Notes: generated by a model not told the origin, from the sequence alone. 64,000 nt of DNA from Thermoleophilia bacterium (GCA_017882325.1 JADGPQ010000001.1:541-64540), one strand, 5' to 3'. Positions 7,825-64,000 are shown, counted from the stretch's first letter. Made by a program: numbers and translations.

Positions 7825-7901
7825 GAGAGGAAACCGGACCCTTTGCCCAGCAATGTCAGATCACTCGAGGAGGTCTCGGTGACGCAAGGCGGTGAAGACT
7901 C

Positions 7902-34211: not shown

Positions 34212-34339
34212 AACCTGACCTGCGGGTGATGCCCGGGGCGGGCCGGCGCTGCCGGCCCGCCCCGCGGCGCCGCCCAAAGGGCCGCGGCACGCGGCCCTCG
34301 GGCGGCGCCGGCCATCCCTGCCGTACTCGGAGGTACACG

Positions 34340-34981: not shown

Positions 34982-35013
34982 ACCAACCTCCGACGACACA
35001 CGGAAGGGATGCC

Positions 35014-36055: not shown

Positions 36056-36598
36056 ATGCCGCGTCGCGTGCTGACCCCCGAGCGCGAGCTCGAGGGCCGG
36101 GAGGGAGCGGGCTCCTCGCTCGATCTCACACCGCTCGCGGAGATCGTCGCCGAGCACTACGCGTCGTCGGGCGACCTGATCCCCGTCCTCCAAAGAGCCC
36201 AGCGCCACTTCGGCTACTTGCCCGATGAGGTCGTCACCGAGATCGCACGTCTCACGCGCTTGCCCGCCTCCCGCGCTTACGGCGTGATCACGTTCTACGC
36301 TCAGTTCTCGACGGTGCCCAGCGGGCGGCACAAGATCTGCGTCTGTCAAGGGACCGCATGCCACGTTCGCGGAGGTCACGGCGTCCTACGCGCGGTCGAA
36401 AGCGAGCTCGGCATCAAAGCCGGCACGACGAGCGACGACCTGGAGCACACGCTCGTGACCGCGGCCTGTCTGGGGGCTTGCTCGCTCGCTCCTGTGATGA
36501 CCGTCGACAGTCAGTACTTCGGCAAGCTGACAGGCGCCAAGGCGGCGGCGGCGCTGGAACGGATCGGCGGTGACGGCGGTGAGCTCGATGACGACTGA
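36056..36598 (+). CDS. NuoE/HoxE-family [2Fe-2S] thioredoxin-like subunit
   Basis: CxxxxC...CxxxC pattern (ICVCQGTACHVRGG ... CLGACSLAPV) of NADH dehydrogenase 24 kDa family. Confidence 0.8.
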   Translation: MPRRVLTPERELEGREGAGSSLDLTPLAEIVAEHYASSGDLIPVLQRAQRHFGYLPDEVVTEIARLTRLPASRAYGVITFYAQFSTVPSGRHKICVCQGTACHVRGGHGVLRAVESELGIKAGTTSDDLEHTLVTAACLGACSLAPVMTVDSQYFGKLTGAKAAAALERIGGDGGELDDD

Positions 36599-39500: not shown

Positions 39501-39737
39501 CGCCTGCTCACCGGCACCGGCATGAGGGAGGAGTACCTGAGCACCATCCAGGAGGCCCGGAGGGTGCCGCGCTACGTGCCGCTCGACCGCCTCGAGGAGG
39601 AGGTCCCGCGCGTGGCGGCTGAGCACGTTCCCGCCGACTCACGCGTGAGGAGCTTCGCCGAGGTCGTGCAGACGATCACTGCCGAGGAAGCCTGCTGCGA
39701 GGCTGGTCGCTGTCTGCGCTGCGATCTCGAACACTGA
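36570..39737 (+). CDS. multidomain flavoprotein: N-terminal Trx-like [2Fe-2S] + NuoF-like (FMN/NADH, 4Fe-4S) fused to GltD/NfnB-like FAD/NAD(P)H oxidoreductase
   Basis: NuoF motifs (GRGGGGFPTG, SLAGKLNNTGLVEVP, ESCGKCVPCR) followed by ferredoxin-like Cys clusters and GltD-like VAVVGSGPAGLSCAYQLA dinucleotide fold; 1055 aa; start GTG 36570 or ATG 36588. Confidence 0.8.
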   Translation: MTAVSSMTTDTDALPLPSRRLTSVVALQEYRDVVRARPEAEKTVRVCMDTGCRAGGGENIMRAFERELEHRGLTGSVAVRATGCHGFCARGPVVVVDPEDVFYQMVEPGDVPDIVAQTIVRGEVVSRLTYHSADGCPTARQPEIPFFSGQKRVVLRNCGTIDPTDIDAYIARGGYEALARALEAMPPADVVETVKASGLRGRGGGGFPTGRKWELAAAQQSDKKYVICNADEGDPGAFMDRGLLEGDTHAVIEGMLIGAYAMGADEGYVYCRAEYPGAIKHLRIALDQAEERGLLGNDILGSGVNFHLKVKEGAGAFVCGEETALIASIEGKRGMPRTRPPFPAVSGLWGRPTNINNVETWANVPAIIDRGAEWYRSMGTENSPGTKVFSLAGKLNNTGLVEVPMGVTLRELIFDIGGGITRNRHFKAVQMGGPSGGCLSEQHLDLPIDYDSLRNAGAIMGSGGVIVMDETTCMVDLARFFVNFTQAESCGKCVPCRLGTKRMLEILTRITNGEGTMDDLGRLEKLAQTIKATSLCGLGQTAPNPVLSTLKYFRHEYEAHILDKHCAACQCEGLVKAPCSHTCPAGVDTASYLALVAAGQFKEAMAVHMERNPLPSICGRVCHHPCESMCKRAELDDAVSVAAVKRFMGDIAPSTEIVRPRPLDQGKRVAVVGSGPAGLSCAYQLALAGFPVTMFEALSVAGGMLAVGLPAFRMPKDVVAREIEAIAELGVEIRLGEALGRDFSLDSLLSDGYEAVFLALGTHVSNPLDIENENSPGVLVGLEFLRDVNLDNGASVGDSVVVVGGGSVAMDAARCALRLQAIDGRERDVTLVYRRSRHEMPAYEWEIVEGDEEGLRFEYLAAPARVLLGQDGRVSGLECVRMELGEPDESGRRRPRAVPGSEFVIPCDTIIPAVGLSVDLSWLSGELAVTPRGTIAADRFEFRTSHPKVFAGGDSVRGPSTLIEAIGDGQRAAFAIERLLTGTGMREEYLSTIQEARRVPRYVPLDRLEEEVPRVAAEHVPADSRVRSFAEVVQTITAEEACCEAGRCLRCDLEH

Positions 39738-40777: not shown

Positions 40778-42007
40778 GTGGCTGAAGAACTAGCCTTTGC
40801 TCGTAAGGCCAGCGGCTTGGTCCGCGGCCTTTCTATGTGGGACGCTTTCGCCGTCGGCTTCATGTTCGTCGTGTTCGGCATCAGGATCTTCGCCAAGGTC
40901 CAGAAGGTCGTCATGGTCTTCGGCATCGGCGGGTGCGCCATCATCGGCATCGCGCTCACCGTCACCTCCAGGGCGTCTTTCATGGTGAAGTGGGATGCGT
41001 GGGTCACGGCCAACCACTCGGCCGACCTCATCTACAGCAAGTTCCCCGCCGTCGTCGCCAAGGCTGCCAGCGTGCCGATCATCCCTATCACCTGGAACTG
41101 GGCCGACACCCTCGGCGTGATGGTCGCCATGTCGTGGCTCTTTGCCTACGCGTACTCGATCTCGTTCATCGCCGGCGAGGTCAAGCGCCCCGACAAGACC
41201 ATCATCATGTCCAACCTGTTCGCGATCCTGGTGCCGGCCGCGTTCATGCTCTGGATCGGCGCCGCGATGTACCACTCGATCGGCTTCCAGTTCTTGTCCG
41301 CGTCAGGCTACGCGGACAACAACGGCATCGACGCCATCGCCAACCTGCCGTGGTCCACGCACTTCGTCGGCCTCGCGGCCGTCATGGCGGGCGGCAGCGC
41401 TTTCGGCAAGTTCATCAGCGCGATCATGGGCCTTTCGTACGTGGCCTTCACCCTGTGGTGGATCGCCCTTTCGTACCTGGCCTTCCCGCGCATCCTTTTC
41501 GCCTGGGGCATGGACCGTATGGGCCCGAAGTGGTTCACGGACATCAATCCCCGCTTCGCATCGCCCGTGAAGAACCACCTTCTGTGCTTCGTCCTCGGCG
41601 AGGCTCTCCTGGCCCTGTACTTCTTCAAGTTCAACAGCACCATGCAGAACATCACCGTGACGGGCATGCAGATCACCTCCGTGTTCGCGGTCACGGCTCT
41701 CGCTGCGGTCCTGTTCCCGTATATGAAGCGCTCCAAGGGTGTGTGGGACTCCTCGCCCTACAAGACGTGGAGGTTCCTGGGGCTGCCGATGGTCGTCTGG
41801 GGCGGTGCCGTCAACCTCGTCTATCTTGCCCTGCTCATGTACGAGTTCGTCTTCAAGAAGGCGGCCGGCGCCTTCACGACGGGCTCCACGATCCTCTTTG
41901 GGTTGGTGTGGGTGTTGGGCATCATCTGGTACTTCTTCTGGAAACAGCGCAGCAGGAGCGTGGGCGTCGACGTGTCGATGACCTACGGCGAGTTGCCGCC
42001 TGAATAA
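40778..42007 (+). CDS. APC-superfamily amino acid permease
   Basis: RGLSMWDAFAVGFMFV TM1-like motif, about 11 TM segments; GTG 40778 with AAGGGGGG RBS; GC lower than flanks. Confidence 0.6.
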   Translation: MAEELAFARKASGLVRGLSMWDAFAVGFMFVVFGIRIFAKVQKVVMVFGIGGCAIIGIALTVTSRASFMVKWDAWVTANHSADLIYSKFPAVVAKAASVPIIPITWNWADTLGVMVAMSWLFAYAYSISFIAGEVKRPDKTIIMSNLFAILVPAAFMLWIGAAMYHSIGFQFLSASGYADNNGIDAIANLPWSTHFVGLAAVMAGGSAFGKFISAIMGLSYVAFTLWWIALSYLAFPRILFAWGMDRMGPKWFTDINPRFASPVKNHLLCFVLGEALLALYFFKFNSTMQNITVTGMQITSVFAVTALAAVLFPYMKRSKGVWDSSPYKTWRFLGLPMVVWGGAVNLVYLALLMYEFVFKKAAGAFTTGSTILFGLVWVLGIIWYFFWKQRSRSVGVDVSMTYGELPPE

Positions 42008-42071
42008 TGTAGCAGTACCGTAAGGGGCGGGAGCTCCCGCTCCCGCCCCTTCCTGTCCCTGGAGTGTGCAG

Positions 42072-43004
42072 ATGAGCAAGCTATTCTTCGTCACAGACAT
42101 TCATGGCTCCAATGTGTGCTACCGCAAGTTCCTCAACGCGCTCCCGATCTACGGCGCCGACGTCGCAGTCCTCATGGGTGACCTCACCGGCAAGGTCCTC
42201 GTGCCCCTCGTCGAGAAGGGTAACGACACCTGGGAGTGCACCCTCATGGGGCAGCACCGTGACGTGACCACCAAGGACGAGCTCGCCGACATCAAGAAGA
42301 TCATCGAGAACGCCGGCTATTACTGGGTCCACCAGACGCGCGAGGAGTTCGAGGACACGCGCAGCGACCCCGCGAAGATCGATGCGCTGTTCAAGAGCCT
42401 CGTCTTTACGCGCGTGCAGGAGTGGCTCGACCTCGCCGACGAGCGCCTCGAGGGCAAGCCGTTCCAGATGTACATGTGCCCGGGCAACGACGACTGGTTC
42501 GTCATCGATGACATGATCGACAACGCCAAGCTCGTGCACCCCTGCGACAAGCGCGTCGTGCAGATCGACAACCACGAGATGGTGACGTCGTCGGCTTCAA
42601 ACCCCACCCCATGGGATACGCCTCGAGAGATGAGCGAGGAGGACCTCGAGACGCACTACCGCGGCCTCGTCTCGCAGATCAAGAACCAGGAGACGGCGAT
42701 CTACAATTTCCACGTGCCGCCGCACGGCTACTCGCTGGACCTATGCCCCAAGCTCGACGAGAACCTCACGATGGCTGCCGAAGAGAAGATCCACGCCGGC
42801 AGCATCGGCGCCAAGAAGGTCATCGAGGAGTATCAGCCGCTGCTTGGCACCTTCGGCCACATCCACGAGTCGCGCGGCGCTCAGAAGGCCGGTCGCACGC
42901 TGCTCATCAACCCGGGCAGCGAGTACTCCGAAGGCATCCTCAAGGGCGTGATCATCATTCTCGACAAGAAGAAGGTGAAGGACTACGTCTTCACGTCCGG
43001 TTGA
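42072..43004 (+). CDS. metallophosphoesterase (calcineurin-like phosphoesterase)
   Basis: FFVTDIHGS motif I and MGDLTGK motif II of MPP superfamily; about 60% GC. Confidence 0.7.
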   Translation: MSKLFFVTDIHGSNVCYRKFLNALPIYGADVAVLMGDLTGKVLVPLVEKGNDTWECTLMGQHRDVTTKDELADIKKIIENAGYYWVHQTREEFEDTRSDPAKIDALFKSLVFTRVQEWLDLADERLEGKPFQMYMCPGNDDWFVIDDMIDNAKLVHPCDKRVVQIDNHEMVTSSASNPTPWDTPREMSEEDLETHYRGLVSQIKNQETAIYNFHVPPHGYSLDLCPKLDENLTMAAEEKIHAGSIGAKKVIEEYQPLLGTFGHIHESRGAQKAGRTLLINPGSEYSEGILKGVIIILDKKKVKDYVFTSG

Positions 43005-43059: not shown

Positions 43060-43866
43060 ATGGGTCAGTTCATCCTGCCCAAGGATATCCCGCTCGACCG
43101 CTATCCCAAGCCCGAGGTCTTTCTGAGCGAGGGCAAGCGGATCGCCGAGGCGGCACAGCAGCAGGGCATCGTCATGCGCGTCATGGGTCCGCTGGCGCTG
43201 CACTATTACTTCCCCGACCAGATCGACCTGTACGCCAGGCTCGAGCGCCTCGGAGACCGCTACTTCACCGATATCGACTATGCGACCTACGGCAAGACGC
43301 GCAAGCATCTGGTGAAGTTCATGGAGTCGGTCGGCTACGAGTGCGACCTGCAGACCATGGCCATGACCGGCACGACCCGCCACATCTACTTCGGCGGGGC
43401 GGTGCCCATGATCGACGTCTTCATCGACAAGCTCGACTACTGCCACGAGGTCAACTACGATGGCCGGCTCGAGTCTGACCCGTGGAGCGTTTCGCTGGCC
43501 GACATCCTGCTGCAGAAGCTGCAGATCTGGGAGATCAACGATAAGGACCTCAAGGACATCGAGTACCTGTTCACGGTCGCCGACTTCGGCGAGGACGACG
43601 CCAAGAAGGTCAACGAGGGCTACATCGCCCGGCGCTTCGCCGACGACTGGGGCTTCTGGTACACCGGTACCACGAACCTCGATCGCGTGAAGGAGCATGT
43701 GGGCAACGTCGACGCCCTCAGCGACGACCAGAAGGCCAAGATCAGGCAGGTCGCCGACGAGGTGCGGGCGCGCATCGATCGGGAGCCCAAGACCAAGAAG
43801 TGGGAGAAGCGCGCCAAGAAGGGCACCAAGAAGATCTGGTACAACACCGGCTTCTCCGACTGGTGA
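43060..43866 (+). CDS. hypothetical protein (Lys-rich C-terminus; function unknown)
   Basis: 268-aa ORF with good coding periodicity and start context; no family recognised; about 60% GC. Confidence 0.45.
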   Translation: MGQFILPKDIPLDRYPKPEVFLSEGKRIAEAAQQQGIVMRVMGPLALHYYFPDQIDLYARLERLGDRYFTDIDYATYGKTRKHLVKFMESVGYECDLQTMAMTGTTRHIYFGGAVPMIDVFIDKLDYCHEVNYDGRLESDPWSVSLADILLQKLQIWEINDKDLKDIEYLFTVADFGEDDAKKVNEGYIARRFADDWGFWYTGTTNLDRVKEHVGNVDALSDDQKAKIRQVADEVRARIDREPKTKKWEKRAKKGTKKIWYNTGFSDW

Positions 43867-52597: not shown

Positions 52598-53119
52598 GTG
52601 GCCAAGCAATACGACGCGCCGCCGCCGTTGGTCATCGACCCCGCCAAGCGCTTCACCGCCACCATCAGCACCGACCAGGGCGACATCGTCATCGAGCTCT
52701 ACGCGGACAAGGCGCTCGCGACGGTCAACAACTTCGTGTTCCTGGCTCGCGAGGGCTTTTACGACGGCGTCACGTTTCATCGCGTCATCAAGGGGTTCAT
52801 GGCGCAGGGCGGCGACCCAACCGGCAGTGGCAGCGGCGGCCCCGGCTACCGCTTCGCCGACGAGTTCCACCCGGCGCTCAAGCACGACCAGCCCGGCATC
52901 CTGTCGATGGCCAACGCCGGCCCGAACACGAACGGGTCGCAGTTCTTCATCACGTACCGCGACGCGCCCCATCTCGACGGCAAACACGCCGTGTTCGGGC
53001 GCGTCATCGAAGGCATGGACGTCCTCGAGGCCATCCCCGAGCGAGACCCTACGCGCGCGCGTGAGCCCGGCCTCGCGATGAACAGCATCACGGTCCATGA
53101 GGAGGAATGGATCACGTGA
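52598..53119 (+). CDS. cyclophilin-type peptidyl-prolyl cis-trans isomerase
   Basis: [31 protein letters not shown] cyclophilin motifs; GGAAGGAGG RBS before GTG. Confidence 0.85.
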
Positions 53120-53631
53120 GCGAGGAGCTGCTACGCGGCAAGGCTTGGCTTTTCGGCGACGACATCTCCACCGACCACATCGCCCCGGGCCGCCTGTTCC
53201 ACCTACGCACCGACCTCCCCGAGCTGGCCAAGCACGTCCTCGAGGACGCACGTCCGGAGTTTGCCGCGTCTCTGGCGCCCGGCGACTTCGTCGTGGGCAG
53301 GCGCAACTTCGGCCTCGGATCCAGCCGGGAGCACGCGCCGCGTATCATCAAGCTCGCCGGCGCGGGTGCGGTGATTGCTCAGAGCTTCGCTCGTATCTTC
53401 TTCCGCAACGCCATCAACGTCGGCTTGCCCGTGCTGCAGTGCGACACGAGCGGCATCGGCGAGCAGGACGACCTCGAGGTCGTCTTGATCGCCGGCGAGG
53501 TGCGCGATCTCACGAGCGGAGCCGTCATCCCGTTCGTGCCCCTGCCGCCGGTGATGGTGACGATCTTGAACGACGGCGGCCTGGTGGCGCACGTCAAGAA
53601 GCACGGCGGCTTTGCATTGCCTCAGGGCTGA
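53107..53631 (+). CDS. 3-isopropylmalate dehydratase / homoaconitase small subunit (short archaeal type)
   Basis: aconitase swivel domain ([11 protein letters not shown]...[12 protein letters not shown]). Confidence 0.8.
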
Positions 53632-53684
53632 CCGGCCCCGCGAGGCGCCATCAGCCCGTTGAGATCCGAGACCACAGGAGCTAC

Positions 53685-54689
53685 ATGACCTTTACAGTCA
53701 CCCTGATCCCGGGCGACGGCACCGGCCCCGAGCTCGCCGCCGCCCTCGAGACCGTGATCGCCGCGACCGGCGTACCGATCCTGTGGGAAGTGCACGACGC
53801 CGGCGTGGATGTGATGAAGGAGTATGGCACGCCGCTGCCCGAGCACGTCCTCGACTCCATCCGTCGCACCAGAGTGGCGATCAAGGGACCCATCACGACA
53901 CCGGTCGGCCACGGATTTCGGAGTGTGAACGTGGCCCTGCGCAAAGAGCTCGATCTCTACGCCTGCCTGCGCCCCTCCAAGTCGATGAAGGGCGTGCGCA
54001 GCCGCTTTGAGGATATCGACCTCGTCGTCGTCCGCGAGAACACGGAAGACCTCTACGCAGGCATCGAGCACATGGTCGGCGAGGACGCGGCGGAGAGCAT
54101 CAAGATCATCACCCGCAAAGGCAGCGAACGTATCGTGCGGTTTGCCTTCGAGTACGCGCGCCGGCGCGGCCGCCGCAAGGTCACCGCCGTGCACAAGGCC
54201 AACATCATGAAGTGCACCGACGGGCTCTTTCTGCGCGTCGCCGGCGAAGTGGCCGCGCGGTACCCGGACATCGAGTTCGAGGATCGCATCGTCGACAACA
54301 TGTGCATGCAGCTCGTCCAGAAGCCGGAGCTCTACGACGTGCTGGTGCTGCCCAATCTGTACGGCGACATCGTCAGCGACCTGTGCGCCGGTCTCATCGG
54401 CGGCCTCGGCGTGGCGCCGGGCGCCAACTTCGGCGACGACATCGCCGTGTTCGAGCCCGTGCACGGCAGCGCCCCCAAGTACGCCGGCCGGGACAAGGTC
54501 AACCCCATGGCGCTGCTGCGCTCGGGCGTTCTGCTGCTCGAGCATCTCGGCGAGGACGCCGCGGCGCGCCGCATGGAGGACGCCATCGCGGCCGTCGTCG
54601 CCGAGGGCAAGGACGTGACCTACGACCTGGGCGGCACGGCCGGCACCAGCAGCATGGCCGCCGCCATCGCACGCCGCATCCAAAGTTAG
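53685..54689 (+). CDS. homoisocitrate/isocitrate/3-isopropylmalate dehydrogenase family (Thermus HICDH-like NAD enzyme)
   Basis: [52 protein letters not shown]; ends TAG. Confidence 0.8.
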
Positions 54690-54730
54690 CGCGCCGCCCG
54701 CCCGCCGGGCGCGCCCGCAAAGGAGGCTTC

Positions 54731-55021
54731 ATGGAGGAGCAAGAGAAGCACATCAACCTGCACGCCACCCCTGAGATGATGGCGGGCGTCTACGCCAACT
54801 TCGCCAACGTCAGCCACTCGGACTACGAGTTCTCGATCACGTTCGTGCGCCTCGACCATGAGAGTGAGGAGCCGGGCGAGATGCAAGGCGTTGTCGTCAG
54901 CCGCGTCAACCTCTCGGCGCGCTTCCTCAAGGAACTGCTCGACGCCATGGCCGACAATTACAGCAAGTGGCAGGCCGCCGAGAACATCAGAGACCTGCCG
55001 GAGGCGCCGGGCCGCGATTAG
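54731..55021 (+). CDS. DUF3467-like small protein
   Basis: GVYANFANVSHSDYEFSITF signature; AAAGGAGG RBS. Confidence 0.6.
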   Translation: MEEQEKHINLHATPEMMAGVYANFANVSHSDYEFSITFVRLDHESEEPGEMQGVVVSRVNLSARFLKELLDAMADNYSKWQAAENIRDLPEAPGRD

Positions 55022-55040
55022 CCGCCGTAGGCGCGCTAAG

Positions 55041-55068
55041 GTCGGGTGCGCCGAAAGGCTCACCCGAC
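55041..55068 (+). repeat. perfect 8-bp stem hairpin GTCGGGTG-N12-CACCCGAC inside a repeat-containing aor leader
   Basis: inverted repeat seen directly; part of imperfect direct repeat TAAGGT..GTGCGCCGA (55035-55057 / 55093-55107) and GAATGGCSAAGC (55160-55173 / 55249-55262). Confidence 0.4.
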
Positions 55069-55246
55069 ACTGACCAGCGCAGCCGGGTCAACGTAAGGTG
55101 CGCCGACAGGCCAACCGAACACAAGCGCGGCGACGCCGACGCGGCCGACGCGCCTGCCGGAATGGCCAAGCGAAGCCCCTTTTCGGCTCCGTTTTGCCCT
55201 GCAAGATGGCGGTTTCTCCGCTGTTGCTCCGCCTCCGGCCGTTGGC

Positions 55247-55252
55247 TAGAAT
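55247..55252 (+). promoter_or_regulatory. -10-like hexamer TAGAAT upstream of aor (same GCTAGAATGG context as upstream of argS at 15169-15174)
   Basis: sequence motif only; implies about 90-nt 5' UTR before TTG 55344. Confidence 0.3.
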
Positions 55253-55343
55253 GGCGAAGCCGGTAAGCCCACCGTTTCCCGCCCCGATGGCTAGTTCGCG
55301 ACGCCCGCGGAGCGGGGAAGGAGTACGTCGTCAGGAGGACGCA

Positions 55344-57122
55344 TTGGATTTCTACCAAGGCAAAGTGCTCAAGATCGACCTGAGCGCGGGCACTGCCATC
55401 GTCGAGCCGCTCAACATGGAGTGGGCGGAGTTGTACATCGGCGGCAAGGGCCTCATGCTGCGCTACCTGTGGGAGCTCACCGAGCCTGGCCTCGACCCAT
55501 GGTCACCTGACAACCCCTTCATCGTGGCCACCGGCCCCTTCGCCGGCACAAACGTCAGCACGTGTTCGCGCGTCGTCATCGGCGGCAAGAGCCCGGCCTC
55601 GGGCACCATGCTCGACAGCTACATGGGCGGCTCGTTTGGTTCCATCCTCAAGTTCGCCGGCTACGACATGGTCATCGTCCAGGGCCTGGCGCCGCAGCTC
55701 AGCACCATCCTCATCAAGGACGACGTCGTCACCCTCGCCCCCTGCCCCGCGTACACGGGCATGAAGACGTCCGAGATCGAAGCGGCTCTGCGCGCCGACT
55801 TCGACGCGAAGATGACCGCCATCAGCATCGGCCCGGCCGGCGAGAGCAAGCTGCCGTGGGCCTGCATCTCCAACGACCAGTATCACAAGGCCGGGCGAGG
55901 CGGCACGGGCGCGCTGCTGGGCTCCAAGAACGTGAAGGCCATCGCCGTTGCCGGCACCGGCAAGGTCACCGTCGGCGACGCCAAGGCGTTCCTCGACGAC
56001 ATCGAGCGCATGGACGCCGACTACATCCTCACGGACGACAACTACTGGGTTCACGAAGAAGGCACGCCCATCCTCGTCGGCATCACCAGTGGCGCGGGGT
56101 GCCAGCCGGTGCGCAACTTCTCGGAGGGTACCAATCCGGACGTCGAGAACATCGACTCCGAGGCCTTCCAGAAGATCCGCGTCAAGAAGCGCGCCTGTTA
56201 CCAGTGCACGCTCGCCTGTCGCAACTTCCACCGCGTCGAGGGCGCCGAAGGCGAAGGCCCGGAGTACGAGACCATCGCGCTCTGCGGCGCCAACGTCGGC
56301 GTCGGTGACATCGACGCGCTGATGAAGTTCAACATCGAATGCGACGAATGGGGCCTCGACACGATCTCCACCGGCAACGTTCTCGGCCTCGCGATGGACA
56401 TGACCGAGAAGGGCATCCACGACTTTGGCGTGCGCTTCGGCGATCTCGATGCCTACCTCAAGGTGCCCGAGCAGCTCGCGACTCGCAGCGGTATCGGCGC
56501 CGAGCTGGCGATGGGTGCCAAGGCCCTTGCCGAGAAGCACGGGTGCCCCGAGCTCGCCATGCATTCCAAGAACCTCGAGATGCCCGGCTACGACCCGCGC
56601 GGCTCGTTCGGGATGAGCATCGCTTACGCGAGCTCGGATCGCGGCGGCTGCCACATGCGCTCGTTCCCCATCGGCGTCGAGGTCGTCGAGGGCAGCATGC
56701 CGGCCGATACGCTGGACTCGAGCAAGGTCGTGTGGAACATCGACTTCCAGAATCACTACGCCTTCAAGTTCTGCGGCATCTGGTGCGACTTCTGGGCCAT
56801 CGACTACGACCAGATGACGCAGCTCATGAAGCACCTCTGGAAACGCGACGTGACCGAGGACGAGCTCAAGGTCGTCGGCGAGCGGGTCTGGAACCTGGGG
56901 CGCCTGTACAATCTGCGCGAAGGCACCGAGAAGAAAGACGATTTCGTGCCCAAGGCGATGCTCGAAAAGCCCTTCACCACCGGCGTCTCCGCCGGCAAGG
57001 TCATCGGCAGCGAGCGCTTCGCCAAGGTAATGGACGAGTACTACGCGACGCGTGGCTGGGACGAGAACGCAGTGCCCACCGAAGACAAGCTCCGGCAACT
57101 CGGCATCGACGTGCGGCTCTGA
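55344..57122 (+). CDS. aor: tungsten-containing aldehyde:ferredoxin oxidoreductase (AOR family)
   Basis: N-terminal FYQGKVLKIDLSAGT...IGGKGL AOR domain 1, C-terminal AOR domains with Cys ligands (CYQCTLACRNFH); AGGAGGA RBS 4 nt before TTG 55344. Confidence 0.85.
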   Translation: MDFYQGKVLKIDLSAGTAIVEPLNMEWAELYIGGKGLMLRYLWELTEPGLDPWSPDNPFIVATGPFAGTNVSTCSRVVIGGKSPASGTMLDSYMGGSFGSILKFAGYDMVIVQGLAPQLSTILIKDDVVTLAPCPAYTGMKTSEIEAALRADFDAKMTAISIGPAGESKLPWACISNDQYHKAGRGGTGALLGSKNVKAIAVAGTGKVTVGDAKAFLDDIERMDADYILTDDNYWVHEEGTPILVGITSGAGCQPVRNFSEGTNPDVENIDSEAFQKIRVKKRACYQCTLACRNFHRVEGAEGEGPEYETIALCGANVGVGDIDALMKFNIECDEWGLDTISTGNVLGLAMDMTEKGIHDFGVRFGDLDAYLKVPEQLATRSGIGAELAMGAKALAEKHGCPELAMHSKNLEMPGYDPRGSFGMSIAYASSDRGGCHMRSFPIGVEVVEGSMPADTLDSSKVVWNIDFQNHYAFKFCGIWCDFWAIDYDQMTQLMKHLWKRDVTEDELKVVGERVWNLGRLYNLREGTEKKDDFVPKAMLEKPFTTGVSAGKVIGSERFAKVMDEYYATRGWDENAVPTEDKLRQLGIDVRL

Positions 57123-57152
57123 CAGCCGGCTCGCGGAAGGAAGGGATCGCAG

Positions 57153-57650
57153 ATGCCCCACGTCATGATCAGCAACAAGAAGTGCACCGGCTGCCACATG
57201 TGCGAGCTGGGCTGCTCGGCATTTCACGAGGGCGGGTTTCAACCCTCGCTGGCTCGGCTCTTCACGGATGTCAACCCCACGACGGCCGTGATCAAGGGTC
57301 ATTCGTGCCTGCAGACCGCCTGCGCCAAGTGCCAGGAGGCCTGTCCGGAGGACGCCATTGTGACCAGGCAGATCACCGTGAAGCCGGCGGGCGAGTTCAG
57401 CAGCAGGGAGAAGAACGGCGATACGGTCACCGGCTTCGTCCTGATCGTGGACGAGTCCAAGTGCACGAACTGCGGCGATTGCTACGAGGTCTGCCCGTAC
57501 GACGTCATCCATGAGCACCCCGCCCGCGAAGTCGCGTTCAAGTGCGATCTGTGCGATGGCGACCCGCAGTGCATCGCCTTCTGCCAGAACAAGTACGTCC
57601 TCGCCGTCGATCTCAAGCTCGACAAGAAAGATAAGGAACTGCGGGCCTGA
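57153..57650 (+). CDS. 4Fe-4S ferredoxin-domain electron-transfer subunit (AorA-like)
   Basis: four CxxCxxCxxxCP-type clusters (CTGCHMC, CAKCQEACP, CTNCGDCYEVCP, CDLCDGDPQC). Confidence 0.8.
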   Translation: MPHVMISNKKCTGCHMCELGCSAFHEGGFQPSLARLFTDVNPTTAVIKGHSCLQTACAKCQEACPEDAIVTRQITVKPAGEFSSREKNGDTVTGFVLIVDESKCTNCGDCYEVCPYDVIHEHPAREVAFKCDLCDGDPQCIAFCQNKYVLAVDLKLDKKDKELRA

Positions 57651-57652
57651 CG

Positions 57653-57922
57653 ATGGCCACGGCTTACGTCAAGCTCCCGGTCGGCATGACCACCGCGGCC
57701 GGTGAACGCGCGGTCCAGTGCCAAGCCGCTACTGTGGCCGAAGCGCTCGAGCAGGCCGTCGCCGTCGAACCGCGGCTCAAGCCGCGCATCTTTCGCGATG
57801 ACGGGCGCATGTGGGCCGGCGTGTTCCTCAATGCCCGCAACATCAACGCGCTCCAGGGTCTCGAGACGCCGCTCAGCGACGGCGACAAGCTCGCCGTGGT
57901 GCCGCCCATCTCGGGTGGCTGA
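57653..57922 (+). CDS. MoaD/ThiS family sulfur-carrier protein (AorD-like)
   Basis: 89 aa, beta-grasp, C-terminal GG. Confidence 0.75.
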   Translation: MATAYVKLPVGMTTAAGERAVQCQAATVAEALEQAVAVEPRLKPRIFRDDGRMWAGVFLNARNINALQGLETPLSDGDKLAVVPPISGG

Positions 57923-57958
57923 AGCGAGTTTCCGACGCCGGCGCAGATGACCGACCAC

Positions 57959-57986
57959 GGGGCGGGCGCCGTACGGCGCCCGCCCC
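57959..57986 (+). terminator. perfect 12-bp hairpin GGGGCGGGCGCC-GTAC-GGCGCCCGCCCC after aor operon
   Basis: seen directly; no U tract (typical for high-GC). Confidence 0.5.
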
Positions 57987-58017
57987 GTCGCTGTCGCGTT
58001 CTGGTACCATCTCGCGC

Positions 58018-58680
58018 ATGAACATCGACGCCGCCAGACGACAGCTTGCCGAAGCGGGGCTCCAGAGCGCCGTCGGCGGCCGCGCCAGCGTTCGCCGTTT
58101 CCTCCCCGACCCCGTCCCACGGGAGGACGTGACGACGATGGTCGAACTGGCGGTGCGTGCGGCCAACGCCGGCAACGCCCAGATGTGGAGGTTCGTTGCC
58201 GTGGACGACGCGGTCACGCAGGTCGCGATGCGTCAGGCCGTCGACGACGCCATCGACGAGATGGCCGCCTGGCCGCAACTCGCCGGCAGCAGCAAAGAGA
58301 TCAAGGCCCTACGGGCCTACGCGACGTTCTTTGTGGACGCGCCGCTGGTGATGGCCGTGTTCGGCCTGCCCTACCTCTCTCGCGCCGACGAGATGCTGCT
58401 CGCCCGCGGTCTCAGCACGGAGGAGCGCGACAGGCTGCGCGCGCGCCCGGACCTGCAGAGCATCGGCGCCGCCGTCCAGCTCTTCTGTTCGGCGGCGCAC
58501 GCCTTGGGCTACGGCTCGTGCTGGATGACGGCCCCCGTACTCGCGGCGCCCGGCATCGAAGGGCTGCTTGGCGTGGAGCCTCCGGCCAGGCTGGTCGCCG
58601 TCGTGCCCGTCGGGCGGCCCGCGGGAGCCGTCAATCCCACGTCACGGCGACCGGTCGGCGAGGTGCTCGAGTTCCGCTGA
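58018..58680 (+). CDS. nitroreductase family protein
   Basis: RSVRRFLPDPVPREDV N-terminus and GYGSCWM motif of NADH oxidase/nitroreductase fold. Confidence 0.7.
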   Translation: MNIDAARRQLAEAGLQSAVGGRASVRRFLPDPVPREDVTTMVELAVRAANAGNAQMWRFVAVDDAVTQVAMRQAVDDAIDEMAAWPQLAGSSKEIKALRAYATFFVDAPLVMAVFGLPYLSRADEMLLARGLSTEERDRLRARPDLQSIGAAVQLFCSAAHALGYGSCWMTAPVLAAPGIEGLLGVEPPARLVAVVPVGRPAGAVNPTSRRPVGEVLEFR

Positions 58681-58689
58681 GCGGCCACG

Positions 58690-59787
58690 GTGAAGGGGAG
58701 GAACTCCTTGATCCACGCAGCAAATGACGTCCGCGACCTCTGTCGCCGCGCGCTCGCCGGTGGCCTGCTCGAAGAGGCCGACCTCGTGACGCTCCTCTCT
58801 GCCCGCGGCGATGCCGCCGAGGTCCTGTTCGCCGCGGCGCGCGAGGTTCGCGCCCGGCGTTTCGGCGCCGTGGTCTTTCTCTACGGTTTCGTGTACTTCT
58901 CGACCTACTGCCGCAACGAGTGCGCCTTCTGCTTCTACCGCGTCGACAACGACGAGAGCCCGCGCTATCGCAAGTCCCTGGACGAGGTCGTCTCCATCTG
59001 CCGCGACCTCGCGGGCTCCGGGGTCGTCCTGCTCGACCTCACCATGGGCGAAGACCCGGTCATCCACGACGACCCCGGCTACGCCGGACTTCTCGAGCTC
59101 GTCGCGGCCGTGTGCGACGGTGGCGGGCTACCGGTCATGGTCTCGCCGGGCGTTGTGCCCGACGAGGTGCTCGCAGGTCTCCGTGCCTGCGGCGCGGACT
59201 GGTACGCGTTGTACCAGGAGACGCACAGTCCGGAGCTGTACGAGCGCCTGCGGACCGGGCAGTCGTTCGCGGCGCGGATCGCCGCGCGCCGCGCGGCTCG
59301 GCGCGCCGGTCTGCTCGTCGAGGACGGCATCCTCACGGGTATCGGCGACACGGAGGCAGACCGCGCCCGTTCCATCGCGGCGATGCGCGAGGCCGCCTGG
59401 GAGCAGGTCCGGGTCATGACGTTCGTGCCGCAGGTGGGCACGCCGCTGGCCGATGTGCGGCCGGCCGCAGACGAGGCCGAGCTGCTCGCCATCGCGGCGA
59501 TGCGTCTGGCCATGCCCCGTTCTCTGATCCCGGCGTCTCTCGACGTCGACGGCATCCGCGGTCTCGAGCGGCGCCTGAACGCGGGCGCCAACGTGGTGAC
59601 CTCCATCGTGCCACCGATCGTCGGCCTGGCCGGCGTGTCGCAGGCCGAGCTCGACATCGACGAGGGGCGCCGGACGGTGGCGGAAGTGCTGCCGCACCTC
59701 GCACGGCTGGGGCTCCGCTCGGGGACGGTCACCGAGTATCGCGCCTGGCTCGCTGCGGCGCACGAGGGCGTCGAGGTCCCGGCGTGA
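58690..59787 (+). CDS. pylB: radical SAM enzyme PylB-like (3-methylornithine synthase, lysine mutase)
   Basis: near-collinear match to Methanosarcina PylB: FVYFSTYCRNECAFCFY, LDLTMGEDP, ALYQETHSPELYERLRTGQSF, VEDGILTGIGDT, VRVMTFVPQVGTPL, LIPASLDVDGIRGLERRLNAGANVVTSIVPP; start GTG 58690 or TTG 58708 (GGGGAGG RBS). Confidence 0.85.
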   Translation: MKGRNSLIHAANDVRDLCRRALAGGLLEEADLVTLLSARGDAAEVLFAAAREVRARRFGAVVFLYGFVYFSTYCRNECAFCFYRVDNDESPRYRKSLDEVVSICRDLAGSGVVLLDLTMGEDPVIHDDPGYAGLLELVAAVCDGGGLPVMVSPGVVPDEVLAGLRACGADWYALYQETHSPELYERLRTGQSFAARIAARRAARRAGLLVEDGILTGIGDTEADRARSIAAMREAAWEQVRVMTFVPQVGTPLADVRPAADEAELLAIAAMRLAMPRSLIPASLDVDGIRGLERRLNAGANVVTSIVPPIVGLAGVSQAELDIDEGRRTVAEVLPHLARLGLRSGTVTEYRAWLAAAHEGVEVPA

Positions 59788-61028
59788 GACTCCTGGTCGT
59801 CGGCGGCAAGCTGCAGGGTACCGAGGCCGTCTACCTGGCGGCGAAGGCCGGCTGGGAGACCGTTCTCGTCGACCGCCGGGAGGCTGCTCCGGCAGCGGGG
59901 CTCGCCGACCGACACGTGGTAGCGGACATCGTCGCCCACGACTCCCTCGCGAAGACATTGGTCAGCGCCTGCGACGCCGTGTTGCCGGCCTGCGAAGACC
60001 TGGGGACGCTGGAGTGGCTCGCTGAACGCGTGCCAGCCTGGGGCGTCCCCCTTCTCTTCGACCTCGACGCATACCGCGTCAGCGAGTCCAAGCTGGCCTC
60101 GCTGAGGCTGTTCGAGGCACTCGATGTGTCGCGGCCCGTCCCGTGGCCGGCCTGCGGCTTTCCGGCGGTCGTGAAGCCCGACTCGGCGAGCGGCAGTGAG
60201 GGCGTGTCAGTGGTCGAGGACGAAGCCGAGCTCTCGGCCGCGCTCGCGTGCCTCGCGGCCGGAGGGCACCGGCCGGTGGTCGAGGAATACGTCGCCGGGC
60301 CGTCCCTATCGCTCGAGGTGCTGGCCTGGGACGGCAACGCCGTCCCGCTGCAGATCACCGGCTTGGAGTTCGACGCCCTCTACGACTGCAAGCGCGTCGT
60401 GGCGCCGGTCGGCGAGGCCGAGGCCGGAGGGCCTTCGGCCGCCGGCCCCGCCGGCCCGGGCGCGTGGGCTCACGCCGTCGCGCCTGGCACGCTTGCGGGC
60501 TTCGCCGACGCGGCCGCGCGTCTCGCGGCCGGCCTGGGCCTGAACGGGCTGATGGACGTGGAGGTGATGGTGCGCGGTCTCGAGCCCAAGGTGCTCGAGA
60601 TCGACGCTCGCCTCCCGAGCCAGACGCCGACCGCGGTGTACTGGTCCAGCGGGCTCAACATCGTCGAGCTGCTACTCGAGACGGTTCGCTGCGGCGCCCT
60701 CCCACTGGTCGACCGCAGGTCGCGCCGCGCTTGTGTCTACCAGCACGTCCATGCTCACGATGGTTTGCTGGAGGTCGCCGGCGAGCATGTGATGGGGAGC
60801 GCAGCACCTCTGCAGCTGGTGGAAGGCTTCTTCGGCGTGGACGAAGCACTCACCGACTATCGTCCCGGAGCGCGCGCTTGGGCGGCCACGTTGATCGCCA
60901 CGGGCGCGGACGTCGAAGGGGCCCAGGCGGTGGCCGACGAGGCCACGAGGGAGCTGTCGCGCTGCGAGAGGCTCGACCTGATCCTCGAGTCTGAGAGACT
61001 GGCGCGTACAGAGGCGACGAGGCCGTGA
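59784..61028 (+). CDS. pylC: ATP-grasp ligase PylC-like (3-methylornithine--L-lysine ligase)
   Basis: LVVGGKLQGTEAVYLAAKAG, FDLDAYRVSESK, SLEV, and LKVLEIDARLPSQTPTAVYWSSGLNIVELL match PylC; GTGA overlap with pylB. Confidence 0.85.
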   Translation: MRLLVVGGKLQGTEAVYLAAKAGWETVLVDRREAAPAAGLADRHVVADIVAHDSLAKTLVSACDAVLPACEDLGTLEWLAERVPAWGVPLLFDLDAYRVSESKLASLRLFEALDVSRPVPWPACGFPAVVKPDSASGSEGVSVVEDEAELSAALACLAAGGHRPVVEEYVAGPSLSLEVLAWDGNAVPLQITGLEFDALYDCKRVVAPVGEAEAGGPSAAGPAGPGAWAHAVAPGTLAGFADAAARLAAGLGLNGLMDVEVMVRGLEPKVLEIDARLPSQTPTAVYWSSGLNIVELLLETVRCGALPLVDRRSRRACVYQHVHAHDGLLEVAGEHVMGSAAPLQLVEGFFGVDEALTDYRPGARAWAATLIATGADVEGAQAVADEATRELSRCERLDLILESERLARTEATRP

Positions 61029-61831
61029 CAAGACTCACCGCAGAAGAAGTGACAACGCTCACCGACCGGTTGGGCGAGTTCGAGGCCGGGCTCAGGGAGA
61101 TCACCGGCCTCGGGCTGCGCGAGCTCGCCATGAGGACGGTCGCGCATCCGCCGGTCTGCGTGCCCCTCTACGGCGCGCGCGTGGCGGCGGTGCCGGTTAC
61201 CAGTGGAGAGGGCGTCATCCGTGGTTTCAGCGACTGCGTGGGGGCGATCCTCCGCCATCTCGGCTGCGACGCCTGGGTGACGGCGCAGCCCGACCTACGC
61301 GGCGTACAGGAGGCGTACGACGGGGCGGCGGAGGTGGTCTTCCTCGCCGATGACTTTCGTTTCGTCGCCCTGAACACTGGTGAGCGTCGCTGCGTGGACA
61401 ACGACCCGGCCACGGCCGACGGCTACGCGACCGCGCTCGAGGCGGCGGCCGGCAGCCTCCTCAGCCGGCACGTCCTTCTTCTCGGGCTCGGTCCAGTCGG
61501 CCGCGGGGCCGCGCGGCGTCTGGTGAGCCGCGGCGCCGCGGTCGAGGTCGTGGAGCCCGACCGGGCGCGACTTCGCGCCGCGCTCGACGTCGGGCTCAAG
61601 CTGCAGCCGGTGACGCTTGCCGACGGTCTCGAGCGCTGCGACCTCATCTTCGACGCCACTCCTTCCGGAGGCTTCATCGATGCCGGCGACGTGACCCCCT
61701 TCACCGTCGCGGCCGTCCCGGGCCTTCCGTCCGCCTTCACTCCGGCTGCCCAGGCCGCGCTCGGCGCGCGTCATATCCACGAGCCGCTGGCCGTCGGCGT
61801 CGCCGTCATGGTGGCACGGGCCCTCGTCTGA
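61025..61831 (+). CDS. pylD: PylD-like dehydrogenase (3-methylornithyl-N6-lysine dehydrogenase, pyrrolysine synthase)
   Basis: AAVPVTSGEGVI, VVFLADDFRFVALN, LLLGLGPVG, IFDATPSGG, AAVPGLPSAF, IHEPLAVGVAVM match PylD; GTGA overlap with pylC. Confidence 0.85.
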   Translation: MTRLTAEEVTTLTDRLGEFEAGLREITGLGLRELAMRTVAHPPVCVPLYGARVAAVPVTSGEGVIRGFSDCVGAILRHLGCDAWVTAQPDLRGVQEAYDGAAEVVFLADDFRFVALNTGERRCVDNDPATADGYATALEAAAGSLLSRHVLLLGLGPVGRGAARRLVSRGAAVEVVEPDRARLRAALDVGLKLQPVTLADGLERCDLIFDATPSGGFIDAGDVTPFTVAAVPGLPSAFTPAAQAALGARHIHEPLAVGVAVMVARALV

Positions 61832-61873
61832 GAGGTCCCACGTCTCTGCCGCGCGGCTGCCGGCGCGCCGTTG

Positions 61874-61879
61874 TAGAAT
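61874..61879 (+). promoter_or_regulatory. -10-like TAGAAT (TTGTAGAATC) 10 nt upstream of tRNA-Pyl 5' end
   Basis: same 10-mer TTGTAGAATC occurs at 17507-17516 upstream of M42 peptidase gene. Confidence 0.35.
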
Positions 61880-61889
61880 CATGGCGTGC

Positions 61890-61962
61890 GGGGGGTCGAT
61901 CGGAAGGATCAGCGTGGGCTCTAAACCCACGTAGGCGGGTGTGACTCCCGCACTCCCCGCCA
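61890..61962 (+). tRNA. pylT: tRNA-Pyl (amber suppressor, anticodon CUA), CCA encoded
   Basis: manual fold: acceptor GGGGGGT/ACTCCCC (one G-U), single nt before D arm, D stem GATC/GATC with 5-nt loop, 6-bp anticodon stem CGTGGG/CCCACG, loop CTCTAAA, 3-nt variable loop TAG, T arm GCGGG-TGTGACT-CCCGC, discriminator G; all atypical features match known tRNA-Pyl. Confidence 0.85.
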
Positions 61963-62037
61963 CTCACGTCTCCGGCGCGGACGGGCGTGGCGCGGCGAGC
62001 GGCCGGAGCTGTGCACGGGCGCCACGCGGGAGGGGAC

Positions 62038-62489
62038 ATGGTCGAGGACCGCAAGGAGCGCGTCGACCGCGAGCTCATCGAGCTGCTCAACGAGATCCGC
62101 GTCGTCCTGCCTGGGGCCCAGGTGCTGTTCGCCTTCCTGCTCAGCCTCCCGTTCCTGGCCCGTTTCGATCTGCTCACGCGGATCGATCGTGATGCTTACT
62201 ACGCCGCCTTCCTCTGCACAGCGGTGGGACGATCATATCGATGGCGCCTTCCGCGAATCATCGGCTGCGCTTTCGCGAATCCGACAAGGAACCGATGCTC
62301 CTCTGGTTCAACAGGCTGGTCCTGGTCGGCTCGGCATTCCTGGCCGCGGCGATCGCATTGGCCGTCTTCGTGGTGACGGACATGCTCTTCGACCAAAGCG
62401 CGGCGGCACTCCTGGCGGCGCTCATCGCCGCCTGGGTCGTGATCGTGTGGTACTTGGCGCCGCTCTGGCAGCGGCACTCCGCGGAGTAG
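62038..62489 (+). pseudogene. actinobacterial conserved membrane protein (DUF6328-like) disrupted by a 1-nt frameshift
   Basis: two ORFs (61987-62376 and 62241-62489) together reconstruct one family-like protein (ELLNEIRVVLPGAQVLFAFLLSLPF ... APSANHRLRFRESDKE ... VFVVTDMLF); frames switch near 62224-62232 within a GGTGGG run. Confidence 0.5.
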
Positions 62490-62529
62490 CCGCCGCGGAT
62501 CTACGCTGCCACCGACGCGGGCGGCGCCG

Positions 62530-63447
62530 TCAGTCCGACGAGAACGTTACGGGGATGCGGACTTCGTTCTGGCGTGAGCCGTCCTCCATCGACTGGCTGT
62601 AGACGATGAGCGCACCGCTCTGTGCCGTCGTGCTGAACGAGACCGTCGTGCGGAAGCGTCCGCGCCCGGGCGCGCCGGCGAACGCCTGCACCTGCCTGCG
62701 GACGAGGCTGTGGCCGGCGGCGTCGACGAGCCGTGCCGCGAAACTGCCCTCGAAGACGCTGGCCGTCCCGTTGAGCGCGAAGGGGCTGGACAGCACTGCG
62801 CCGACGCCGGGGGTCTCGACGAAGATGGCGGGCTCGAAGGCGCGCCAGTCGGCGCGCGACTGCTTGGCGAGGATCAGACCGAGGTCGCTGCCCGGCGCGA
62901 TCTCGACGAGGCCTCCGGCAAGCGTGATGTCCACGGCCCTGATCGTGGGGAACCGGGTGAGCGTGTAGACGACCTGCGCGACGCGCTCCTGCCACGAGAG
63001 GTCGCTGCCGCCCGCGACGAAGCGCCCAGGGAGGTCGACCCGCGCAGTCGTGCCGTCGATAGAGAGGCCGAGGAGGCGGACCCCGGTCGGCACGGCGCTC
63101 GTCAGGCCGGCGGCCTGCTCGGCTGCCGTGGGGCCGGTGAGCAGGGCCTTCAGCGCCGCCGTCGCCGGCATCGTGGTCTGCGGGACGCGACGCTGCGCTG
63201 AGCCGAGCTTGCCGCCGCGCAGGAAGTACAGGGAAATCGTGGTCGCAGGCTGCGGGGTGGCCGTGGGCGCCGTCGTGGGACTTGGAGATGCCGAGGGTGT
63301 CGGCGTCACGGTCACGGTGGCCGTGGGGGCGGGCGATGAGCCGCCGGAGGAGTCGCCACAGGCGGCCAGCCCGGCGGCCGCCAGCGCGCTCGCAACGGCC
63401 AGCACCAGCGTCGTCCGCGCGAATCTGGATGTGGCACGTCGTCTCAT
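62530..63447 (-). CDS. lipoprotein with GerMN / Gmad2-like domains
   Basis: signal peptide plus lipobox LAAC, low-complexity Pro/Thr/Ser linker, GerMN-like C-terminal region. Confidence 0.6.
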   Translation of the reverse strand: MRRRATSRFARTTLVLAVASALAAAGLAACGDSSGGSSPAPTATVTVTPTPSASPSPTTAPTATPQPATTISLYFLRGGKLGSAQRRVPQTTMPATAALKALLTGPTAAEQAAGLTSAVPTGVRLLGLSIDGTTARVDLPGRFVAGGSDLSWQERVAQVVYTLTRFPTIRAVDITLAGGLVEIAPGSDLGLILAKQSRADWRAFEPAIFVETPGVGAVLSSPFALNGTASVFEGSFAARLVDAAGHSLVRRQVQAFAGAPGRGRFRTTVSFSTTAQSGALIVYSQSMEDGSRQNEVRIPVTFSSD

Positions 63448-63564
63448 GTTCCACCTCGAGTCGTCACGCGTCTGACTTCACCTTTCGCCGCCGCCGATGC
63501 GGCCTCCTGCCGCCGACCTGCGCGGTCCGACGCGCTCCCCGGCCGTGCTACACTCGCACTCCCC

Positions 63565-63891
63565 ATGCCCACCGACCCCAACAAGGCGCGGTACTACCGC
63601 AAACAGGTCCCGCTCTTCCGCCTCGTCGACAAGCTCAAGCTGTGGCCGTCGCGGCGCGGCATCCTCCACGGCATCAAGGAGTTCGACGAGCGCGGCTCCT
63701 ACGCCGTGGTGATCACCCACTGCAACAAGCGCATGGTGGTGCACGACTCCAAGAAGAGCCGCGCCGCACGCTGGCTGCGCAACAAGTGGTACGCGGAAGC
63801 CTGCCCGAAGTGCCGCATTCCCGAGTGGAAACTGCAGAAGTACGCGGCGACGCACTTCAAGCGCGGCTACGGCTCGCATTTGCACGACTGA
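63565..63891 (+). CDS. pylSn: PylSn (N-terminal tRNA-Pyl-binding domain of split pyrrolysyl-tRNA synthetase)
   Basis: LWPSRRGILHGIKEF...HCNKRMVVHDSKKSRAARWLRNKWYAEACPKCRIPE matches PylRS N-domain (LWMSRTGTIHKIKHH...SRTARALRHHKYRKTCKRCRV), Zn-binding Cys/His conserved; 108 aa. Confidence 0.8.
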   Translation: MPTDPNKARYYRKQVPLFRLVDKLKLWPSRRGILHGIKEFDERGSYAVVITHCNKRMVVHDSKKSRAARWLRNKWYAEACPKCRIPEWKLQKYAATHFKRGYGSHLHD

Positions 63892-64000
63892 TCGGCGTCA
63901 AAGCAGCCGCCAGCTTTCGGGCCGCAGCTGGACGGACTCGGGCGCGAGCAGGACCTTGTCGAGCGCGACGAGCAGGGCCTGCTTGTCCTGCGGCAGCCGC

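Follow-up and report, generated by a model that had tools for sequence, protein, structure and literature searches.

A standalone PylSn gene of a pyrrolysine gene cluster in a Thermoleophilia bacterium, with its catalytic partner out of view

Pyrrolysine (Pyl) genes occupy the 3' end of the 64,000-nucleotide stretch of Thermoleophilia DNA analysed here (hereafter, the window), where pylB, pylC and pylD are followed on the same strand by a gene for tRNA(Pyl) and, past a membrane-protein gene and a lipoprotein gene, by a 108-codon gene that starts with ATG and ends with TGA (stop codon at 63889-63891) (Table 1). To judge from its sequence and modelled fold, the product of this last gene is a genuine PylSn of a split pyrrolysyl-tRNA synthetase (PylRS), in a Thermoleophilia-type actinobacterium. 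The window closes 109 bp after the pylSn stop codon, inside a gene on the opposite strand.

Table 1. Pyl genes and their neighbours at the 3' end of the window
Feature	Coordinates	Strand	Basis
pylB, methylornithine synthase (radical SAM), 365 aa	58690..59787	+	TIGR03910, 442.4 bits (cut-off 348)
pylC, 3-methylornithine--lysine ligase (ATP-grasp), 414 aa	59784..61028	+	TIGR03909, 337 bits (cut-off 248)
pylD, dehydrogenase, 268 aa	61025..61831	+	TIGR03911, 190 bits (cut-off 150); PF21455 PylD_N
pylT, tRNA-Pyl, anticodon CUA, encoded CCA	61890..61962	+	ARAGORN
DUF6328 membrane-protein gene, frame-disrupted by a 1-nt deletion near 62228	62038..62489	+	PF19853
Germane/Gmad2 lipoprotein gene	62530..63447	-	PF10646, PF10648
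pylSn, predicted small tRNA(Pyl)-binding subunit of split PylRS, 108 aa	63565..63891	+	TIGR03912; sequence and fold match
Radical-SAM gene, 3' end (last 33 codons and stop), continuing past the window	63898..64000	-	rSAM genes of relatives

The predicted PylSn matches the PylS_Nterm family (TIGR03912) over profile positions 1-87 of 89, with 125.8 bits for a cut-off of 51.15 (E 6e-37), and it can also be aligned to positions 1-89 of the model for full-length archaeal PylRS; no Pfam model matches it. Sequence comparison relates it to the N-terminal domain of Methanosarcina mazei PylRS (chains 5UD5 and 5V6X, E 1e-11). An AlphaFold2 model built from 83 homologues (mean pLDDT 81) retrieved the same two chains when compared with the PDB by Foldseek (5V6X, E 5e-9; 5UD5, E 1e-8; TM 0.86-0.88, rmsd 1.3 A, 34-35% identity), and nothing else in the PDB fell below E 0.1, the next match being at E 0.15. 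The model thus points to the same compact zinc-binding fold as in the M. mazei domain. Residues H35, C53, C80 and C83 are invariant across the 83 homologues and are aligned to H24, C42, C69 and C72 of M. mazei PylRS, which we take to be the zinc ligands of that enzyme. The PylRS N-terminal domain binds one zinc ion (PMC11467909). A preliminary description of this DNA had regarded the gene as the standalone PylSn of a split PylRS, to be checked by its zinc-binding fold, and this reading is borne out by the family match, the agreement in sequence and fold with 5UD5/5V6X and the invariant tetrad.

The window PylSn is free-standing, with no class II catalytic core fused to it and a 3' neighbour on the opposite strand. 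Homologues of this standalone type number more than 1400 and those of PylSc more than 3000, the named carriers of PylSn and PylSc being Thermoleophilia or "Actinobacteria" metagenome-assembled genomes (MAGs). The protein is 88-97% identical to PylSn proteins encoded next to PylSc; among species-representative genomes the best identity is 95%, and none reaches 100%. An index of 153 billion genes, queried with the exact sequences of the window PylSn and PylD, gave no match. Comparison of pylSn between the window and six relatives gave dN/dS values of 0.06-0.19. By homology, the protein would be expected to bind tRNA(Pyl).

Upstream, pylB, pylC, pylD and pylT are all full-length, as is pylSn, and dN/dS values calculated against the same number of relatives were 0.20-0.30 for pylB, 0.21-0.31 for pylC and 0.14-0.25 for pylD. 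Intact pyl genes under purifying selection (dN/dS 0.06-0.31 overall) are what would be expected in the company of a catalytic subunit, and they argue against a decaying orphan cluster. The cloverleaf of the tRNA(Pyl) (folding energy -36.7 kcal/mol) is compact: its D-loop has 5 nt, its anticodon stem is long, its variable region is very short, and its T-loop lacks TPsiC. Rfam models returned nothing at E 0.1 or better over positions 53000-64000, and a promoter and terminator scan of positions 61800-64000 found none. In the gene list of the whole window, 12 of the 63 predicted genes end in TAG, indicating that amber codons are not avoided in this Pyl-encoding genome.

The two genes that separate pylSn from pylBCD-pylT are those announced by the preliminary description, namely a frameshifted membrane-protein gene (DUF6328) and a lipoprotein gene. 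Positions 2-62 and 68-142 of the DUF6328 profile fall on two ORFs that are not in the same frame, a split also obtained by tblastn, and DNA alignment with two related loci (L002 and L084; L numbers designate related loci throughout), in which the gene is intact and encodes 152 aa, places a single-base gap in the window at the position given in Table 1. This deletion could reflect a real pseudogene or an assembly indel. Since the DUF6328 gene is optional in relatives and absent from many of them, it is not part of the Pyl machinery. Similar frameshifts occur in pylSc and in the radical-SAM (rSAM) gene of the related long-read MAGs L041 and L068; with an optional gene and frequent indel errors in the MAGs of this group, the DUF6328 frameshift says little on the Pyl system. 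The lipoprotein gene is kept between pylD/pylT and pylSn in nearly all related loci.

Searches for the catalytic subunit were negative throughout the window. A tblastn search of the 64 kb with the 286-aa PylSc of locus L001, a bona fide query (313.9 bits on TIGR02367), gave chance matches alone (best E 0.21), and the PylSc of L019, a locus closer to the window, returned nothing at E 1e-6. Gene calling by coding potential yielded 63 genes, of which about 50, including every gene of sufficient length for PylSc, were scanned against Pfam; the sole aminoacyl-tRNA synthetase among them is a class I ArgRS at 15229-16974, and no class II core was found. Two PylSc queries and the Pfam scans therefore confirm the earlier statement that no class II synthetase core is encoded in these 64 kb. 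The window was equally devoid of mtbB-, mttB- or mtmB-type Pyl-dependent methyltransferase genes in tblastn searches, and its 63-gene list contains no same-frame ORF pair parted by just a TAG. The Pyl client may be encoded in another part of the genome.

The partial minus-strand ORF at the very end of the window has its stop codon at 63898-63900, and its translation ends with ...RLPQDKQALLVALDKVLLAPESVQLRPESWRLL. Over its 33 residues, identity is 94% with the C-terminal end of a 292-aa rSAM protein of L002 and 70-95% with the product of the same gene in more than 40 loci. The preliminary description had judged that this ORF did not look like PylSc; it can now be assigned to the C-terminus of a radical-SAM protein. 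In relatives, this rSAM gene is the first gene of an rSAM-corrinoid pair located between pylSn and pylSc. The pair, composed of the 292-aa rSAM gene and an MtbC-like corrinoid gene, is nested in this position in nearly all Thermoleophilia pyl clusters (positions 11072-12949 in L002, 10994-12840 in L041, and more than 50 other loci). The MtbC-like protein scores 216.6 bits on TIGR02370, the rSAM protein has weak matches alone, to B12-rSAM families, and there is usually no methyltransferase gene beside the pair.

Related loci were collected in two ways. A scan of species-representative genomes with a chimeric query, made of the window PylSn and the L001 PylSc, identified 55 loci; it included two PylSn peptide patterns and was, as such, independent of PylSc. 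Metagenome contigs scanned with a PylSc from the sub-clade of the window provided 80 further loci. All loci were annotated by tblastn with the window's own proteins and with neighbour proteins of relatives. None of them contains masked runs of N in which the window could be concealed. Approximately 36 of the 38 species-level loci having at least 4 kb downstream of pylSn, mostly from Thermoleophilia MAGs, carry a convergent pylSc 0.05-4.6 kb away. Two arrangements can be distinguished. In the L001-type clade, the 3' end of pylSc is 22-166 bp from pylSn, with no rSAM and no corrinoid gene. In the larger clade that includes the window, the 3' end of pylSc is 1.7-3.6 kb downstream of pylSn, with the rSAM and corrinoid genes in between. 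The overall organization of this larger clade is isocitrate/isopropylmalate DH - DUF3467 - [AFOR - ferredoxin - ThiS - nitroreductase] - pylB - pylC - pylD - pylT - [DUF6328] - lipoprotein(-) - pylSn(+) - [218-aa ORF(-)] - rSAM(-) - MtbC-like corrinoid(+) - [SAM-methyltransferase, ~0.7 kb] - pylSc(-) - amidase_3(-). The window matches it gene for gene as far as the 3' end of rSAM, and the same layout was found in about 20 metagenome contigs.

When PylB, PylC, PylD and PylSn are concatenated, the resulting tree groups the window with L049, L041, L019, L084, L002 and L050 in a sub-clade of star-like shape; these loci are 84-86% identical to the window over the four proteins. At the DNA level all relatives are approximately 75-78% identical to the window, so that none can serve as a same-species proxy. 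Within the sub-clade, pylSc lies 1.9-2.6 kb from pylSn in L041, L019, L084, L070 and L072. Three Thermoleophilia MAG loci, L041 (CAVOWE010000023.1), L019 (CAVXXF010000003.1) and L084 (Ga0247841_10000366), are syntenic with the window from the isocitrate/isopropylmalate dehydrogenase gene to rSAM; they belong to different species (DNA identity of about 77%), and their contigs go on to the corrinoid gene and to pylSc, 1.9-2.1 kb from pylSn, whereas the window stops earlier. The block at 55344-58680 of the window, comprising AFOR, a 4Fe-4S ferredoxin, a ThiS/MoaD-like protein and a nitroreductase inserted between DUF3467 and pylB, occurs in the clade of the window but not in the L001-type clade, in which pylB comes immediately after DUF3467. 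Loci syntenic with those of Thermoleophilia, with PylSn 88-91% identical, were also found in assemblies labelled "candidate division Zixibacteria" (L012, CAVTJJ010000002.1) and "Deltaproteobacteria" (L028/L052, JBLMXT01); their taxonomic labels or binning are probably wrong.

Based on this conserved framework, pylSc would be missing from view mainly because of the window edge, and not because the system is broken or unusual. If the genome continues like most of its relatives, as synteny suggests, the window PylSn would belong to a complete split PylRS system, with a separate catalytic PylSc encoded on the minus strand some 2-3.6 kb beyond position 64000, after the rSAM and corrinoid genes and convergent with pylSn. 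We would give this precise arrangement about an even chance. The preliminary description had located pylSc beyond position 64000 or elsewhere, in agreement with the relatives, most of which have a convergent pylSc 1.7-3.6 kb downstream of pylSn. By homology with known systems, PylB, PylC and PylD would make pyrrolysine from two lysines, and the class II core of PylSc would charge tRNA(Pyl)CUA. PylSn would clamp the T-loop and the short variable region of tRNA(Pyl), working with PylSc and raising tRNA affinity and in vivo activity. The Pyl-containing client is likely MtbB, with the clustered corrinoid protein as MtbC. The PylSn and PylSc of Desulfitobacterium hafniense are said to act together, as shown biochemically, and the same may be expected in the organism studied here. 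Binding of PylSn to the tRNA face, with raised affinity and in vivo activity, has reportedly been described for D. hafniense and M. mazei. As the two PylRS subunits act in trans, pylSn and pylSc need not adjoin.

This last property leaves room for a different arrangement, to which we attach a real though somewhat lower probability, where pylSc is present and the system still works, but a rearrangement or insertion at the corrinoid gene has uncoupled pylSc from pylSn by more than 10 kb. The catalytic gene would then probably be found as mtbB-corrinoid(+)-pylSc(-)-amidase_3(-) near dimethylamine-methyltransferase genes, and pylSn-rSAM-corrinoid would be followed by unrelated metabolic genes. Several relatives have such an appearance, and sub-clade lineages found through PylSn split about evenly between those with pylSc nearby and those without. 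In L002, the corrinoid gene is followed by genes for an amino-acid permease, a transaldolase, an aminotransferase and a transketolase, with no pylSc within 10 kb downstream; in L050, it is followed by the same permease, with no pylSc within 4 kb, and the two permeases are just 76% identical, which makes a shared assembly artefact unlikely. In the locus with the closest PylSn (L067, 97% identity), the corrinoid gene is followed by an unrelated tail of 390 bp that matches nothing, and L064 breaks inside the small SAM-methyltransferase gene before saccharopine dehydrogenase, aldehyde dehydrogenase and ABC-transporter genes. Complementary half-loci are provided by L076, L079 and L099, where amidase_3-pylSc-corrinoid is associated with dimethylamine-utilisation genes in place of rSAM-pylSn; mtbB directly adjoins the corrinoid gene in L079 and L099, and L076 has a permease and mtbB a few kb beyond it. 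L084 and L076 are 96-98% identical across pylSc-corrinoid and diverge right after the corrinoid gene, identifying this gene as a breakpoint, either as a recombination or insertion hotspot or, in some cases, as a mis-assembly hotspot. However, uncoupling is rare among species representatives (about 2 of 38), near-identical corrinoid paralogues can mislead assemblers so that some contigs may be mis-joins, and seven apparent cases of separation (CAVUGS, CAVOMB, JBLMXT, CAYTRM, DASUMX, CAZJGT and JAAYBE) were rejected, the assembly simply breaking off in these MAGs within or close to the corrinoid gene. The contigs of L028 and L052, for instance, stop inside that gene, and those of L056 and L062 reach just the final 23-27 codons of pylSc. 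The window itself lacks the 218-aa ORF of L002 and gives no positive sign of a rearranged state, and its genome could be of either type, with pylSc linked or unlinked.

Far less probable than either placement is the loss of pylSc, in which a non-functional Pyl system would be decaying and the frameshifted neighbour would testify to local gene decay. The 64 kb hold no PylSc and no Pyl-dependent methyltransferase gene, the adjacent DUF6328 gene has its 1-nt deletion, and mismatched sets of components are known in some bacteria, 11 of 81 genomes having PylSc but no detectable PylSn (PMC9630628). Such a loss is nevertheless very unlikely, given that pylB, pylC, pylD, pylT and pylSn are full-length, with protein genes above curated cut-offs and the dN/dS values reported above, that DUF6328 is an optional, non-Pyl gene in a group where single-base indels are common sequencing errors of MAGs (L041, L068), and that every relative examined with enough sequence has PylSc somewhere in its lineage. 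Also very unlikely, in our estimate, would be a genome truly without PylSc whose pylBCD, pylT and pylSn stay intact under selection or, in a milder form, an rSAM-corrinoid pair that serves as a functional, undescribed Pyl accessory; true absence of PylSc with selected pyl genes would imply a PylSc-independent function of PylSn or the charging of tRNA(Pyl) by another enzyme. The least credible proposal is that of a PylSn whose role does not depend on PylSc, such as that of a free factor binding tRNA(Pyl) or of a partner to another synthetase. PylSc is not seen in the window, and the two subunits are separable, as the D. hafniense PylSc shows by its in vitro activity in the absence of PylSn (Herring et al. 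2007, PMC1851642); yet no positive evidence speaks for this proposal, the two subunits are encoded together in essentially all related loci with enough sequence, and the sequence of the window protein is close to that of PylSn proteins adjoining PylSc.

Compared with known systems, the window falls into the established PylSn + PylSc class and comes from a lineage that has been little described and has a gene order of its own. Like D. hafniense and other Firmicutes, this lineage has PylSn (TIGR03912) and PylSc (TIGR02367) as two polypeptides, and pylBCD and an amber-suppressor tRNA(Pyl) in one neighbourhood, in a cluster that may be interrupted. Bacterial pyl clusters have been described with the orders pylTScBCDSn or pylSnScBCD in Firmicutes, sometimes with interruptions (Borrel et al. 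2014, PMC3941956), and the gene order of the window differs from both, as the preliminary description had noted for Desulfitobacterium. In the window, pylT does not open the cluster but comes after pylD, pylSn shares the strand of pylBCD but is placed past a divergently oriented lipoprotein gene, and pylSc, in relatives, is convergent with pylSn, with the radical-SAM and corrinoid-protein genes between them. The host also differs, being a high-GC actinobacterium and not a Firmicute or a deltaproteobacterium. In Methanosarcina, a linker joins the PylSn domain and the catalytic core in one protein, whereas the window encodes a free-standing protein of 108 aa. The DeltaPylSn class of PylRS (Methanomassiliicoccales) likewise does not have the two modules together, but is the opposite case, with PylSc present and no PylSn anywhere, whereas in the window PylSn is present and PylSc is out of view.

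PylSn and PylSc were reported as distinct genes in all bacteria, in a survey that listed just two Actinobacteria (Guo et al. 2022, PMC9630628), and the searchable literature contained no paper linking Thermoleophilia to pyrrolysine encoding. Split PylRS genes that are not contiguous are already known in bacteria, and the window boundary is the simplest account of the missing partner. Pyrrolysine systems of Actinomycetota are barely covered in the searchable literature, while a conserved, distinctive pyl layout, characterized by pylT after pylD and by pylSn and pylSc converging around an rSAM/corrinoid pair, recurs in the databases in dozens of MAGs from Thermoleophilia and in hundreds of contigs from metagenomes. 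Recognizing these genes has annotation value, gene callers labelling such PylSn proteins as hypothetical, and work on genetic-code expansion could draw on the high-GC PylSn + PylSc/tRNA pairs of the lineage.

Several candidate interpretations of individual loci were considered and rejected. MAGs without a PylSc locus (L049, L050, L064 and L066) were not retained as evidence of loss, the scan patterns being blind to sub-clade PylSc: the four PylSc peptide patterns of the scan are absent from the PylSc of L041 and L019, and a distant copy would thus be missed. L037 (DASRZL01), which has PylSc and no PylSn match, was considered as the other half of the window locus and discarded, because its PylSc shares 97.6% identity with the PylSc of L031, and the PylSn of the L031 lineage is just 90% identical to that of the window. 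An apparent TAG read-through fusion of the L076 corrinoid gene (467-aa product) was also dismissed; what follows the TAG is a distinct SAM-methyltransferase gene that has a start codon of its own and happens to share the frame.

Other features of these loci are worth recording. In L076, mtbB (6864-8267, plus strand) reaches 482.8 bits on TIGR02368 (cut-off 369), and its codon 353 is an in-frame TAG. An mtbB with an in-frame TAG was also found in L079, L099, L027 and L141, and it is the apparent pyrrolysine client gene of the clade. L002 (1520-1683) and L084 (10943-11105) share a palindromic element of 164 bp whose ends are inverted repeats (TTAGGGCCTATCCC...GGGATAGGCCCTTA), with 94% identity between the two copies, at two different intergenic positions, one of which is the pylSc/corrinoid spacer; it is not in the window and looks like a MITE-type mobile repeat.

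Elsewhere in the window, three consecutive, well-scoring ORFs on the plus strand (40778-42007, 42066-43004 and 43060-43866), encoding 409, 312 and 268 aa, have no Pfam match at E 1e-5 and no NCBIfam match at E 1e-4, and their first-codon-position G+C (0.48-0.59) is unusually low compared with that of their neighbours. A large NuoF-like/GltD-like fusion protein is encoded at 36570-39737. Finally, regions 32493-35871 and 12677-13288 encode a formate-THF ligase, a cyclodeaminase/cyclohydrolase-type FTCD_C protein, FolD and a 5-formyl-THF cyclo-ligase, a tetrahydrofolate C1 toolkit that is consistent with the oxidation of methyl groups from methylamines.
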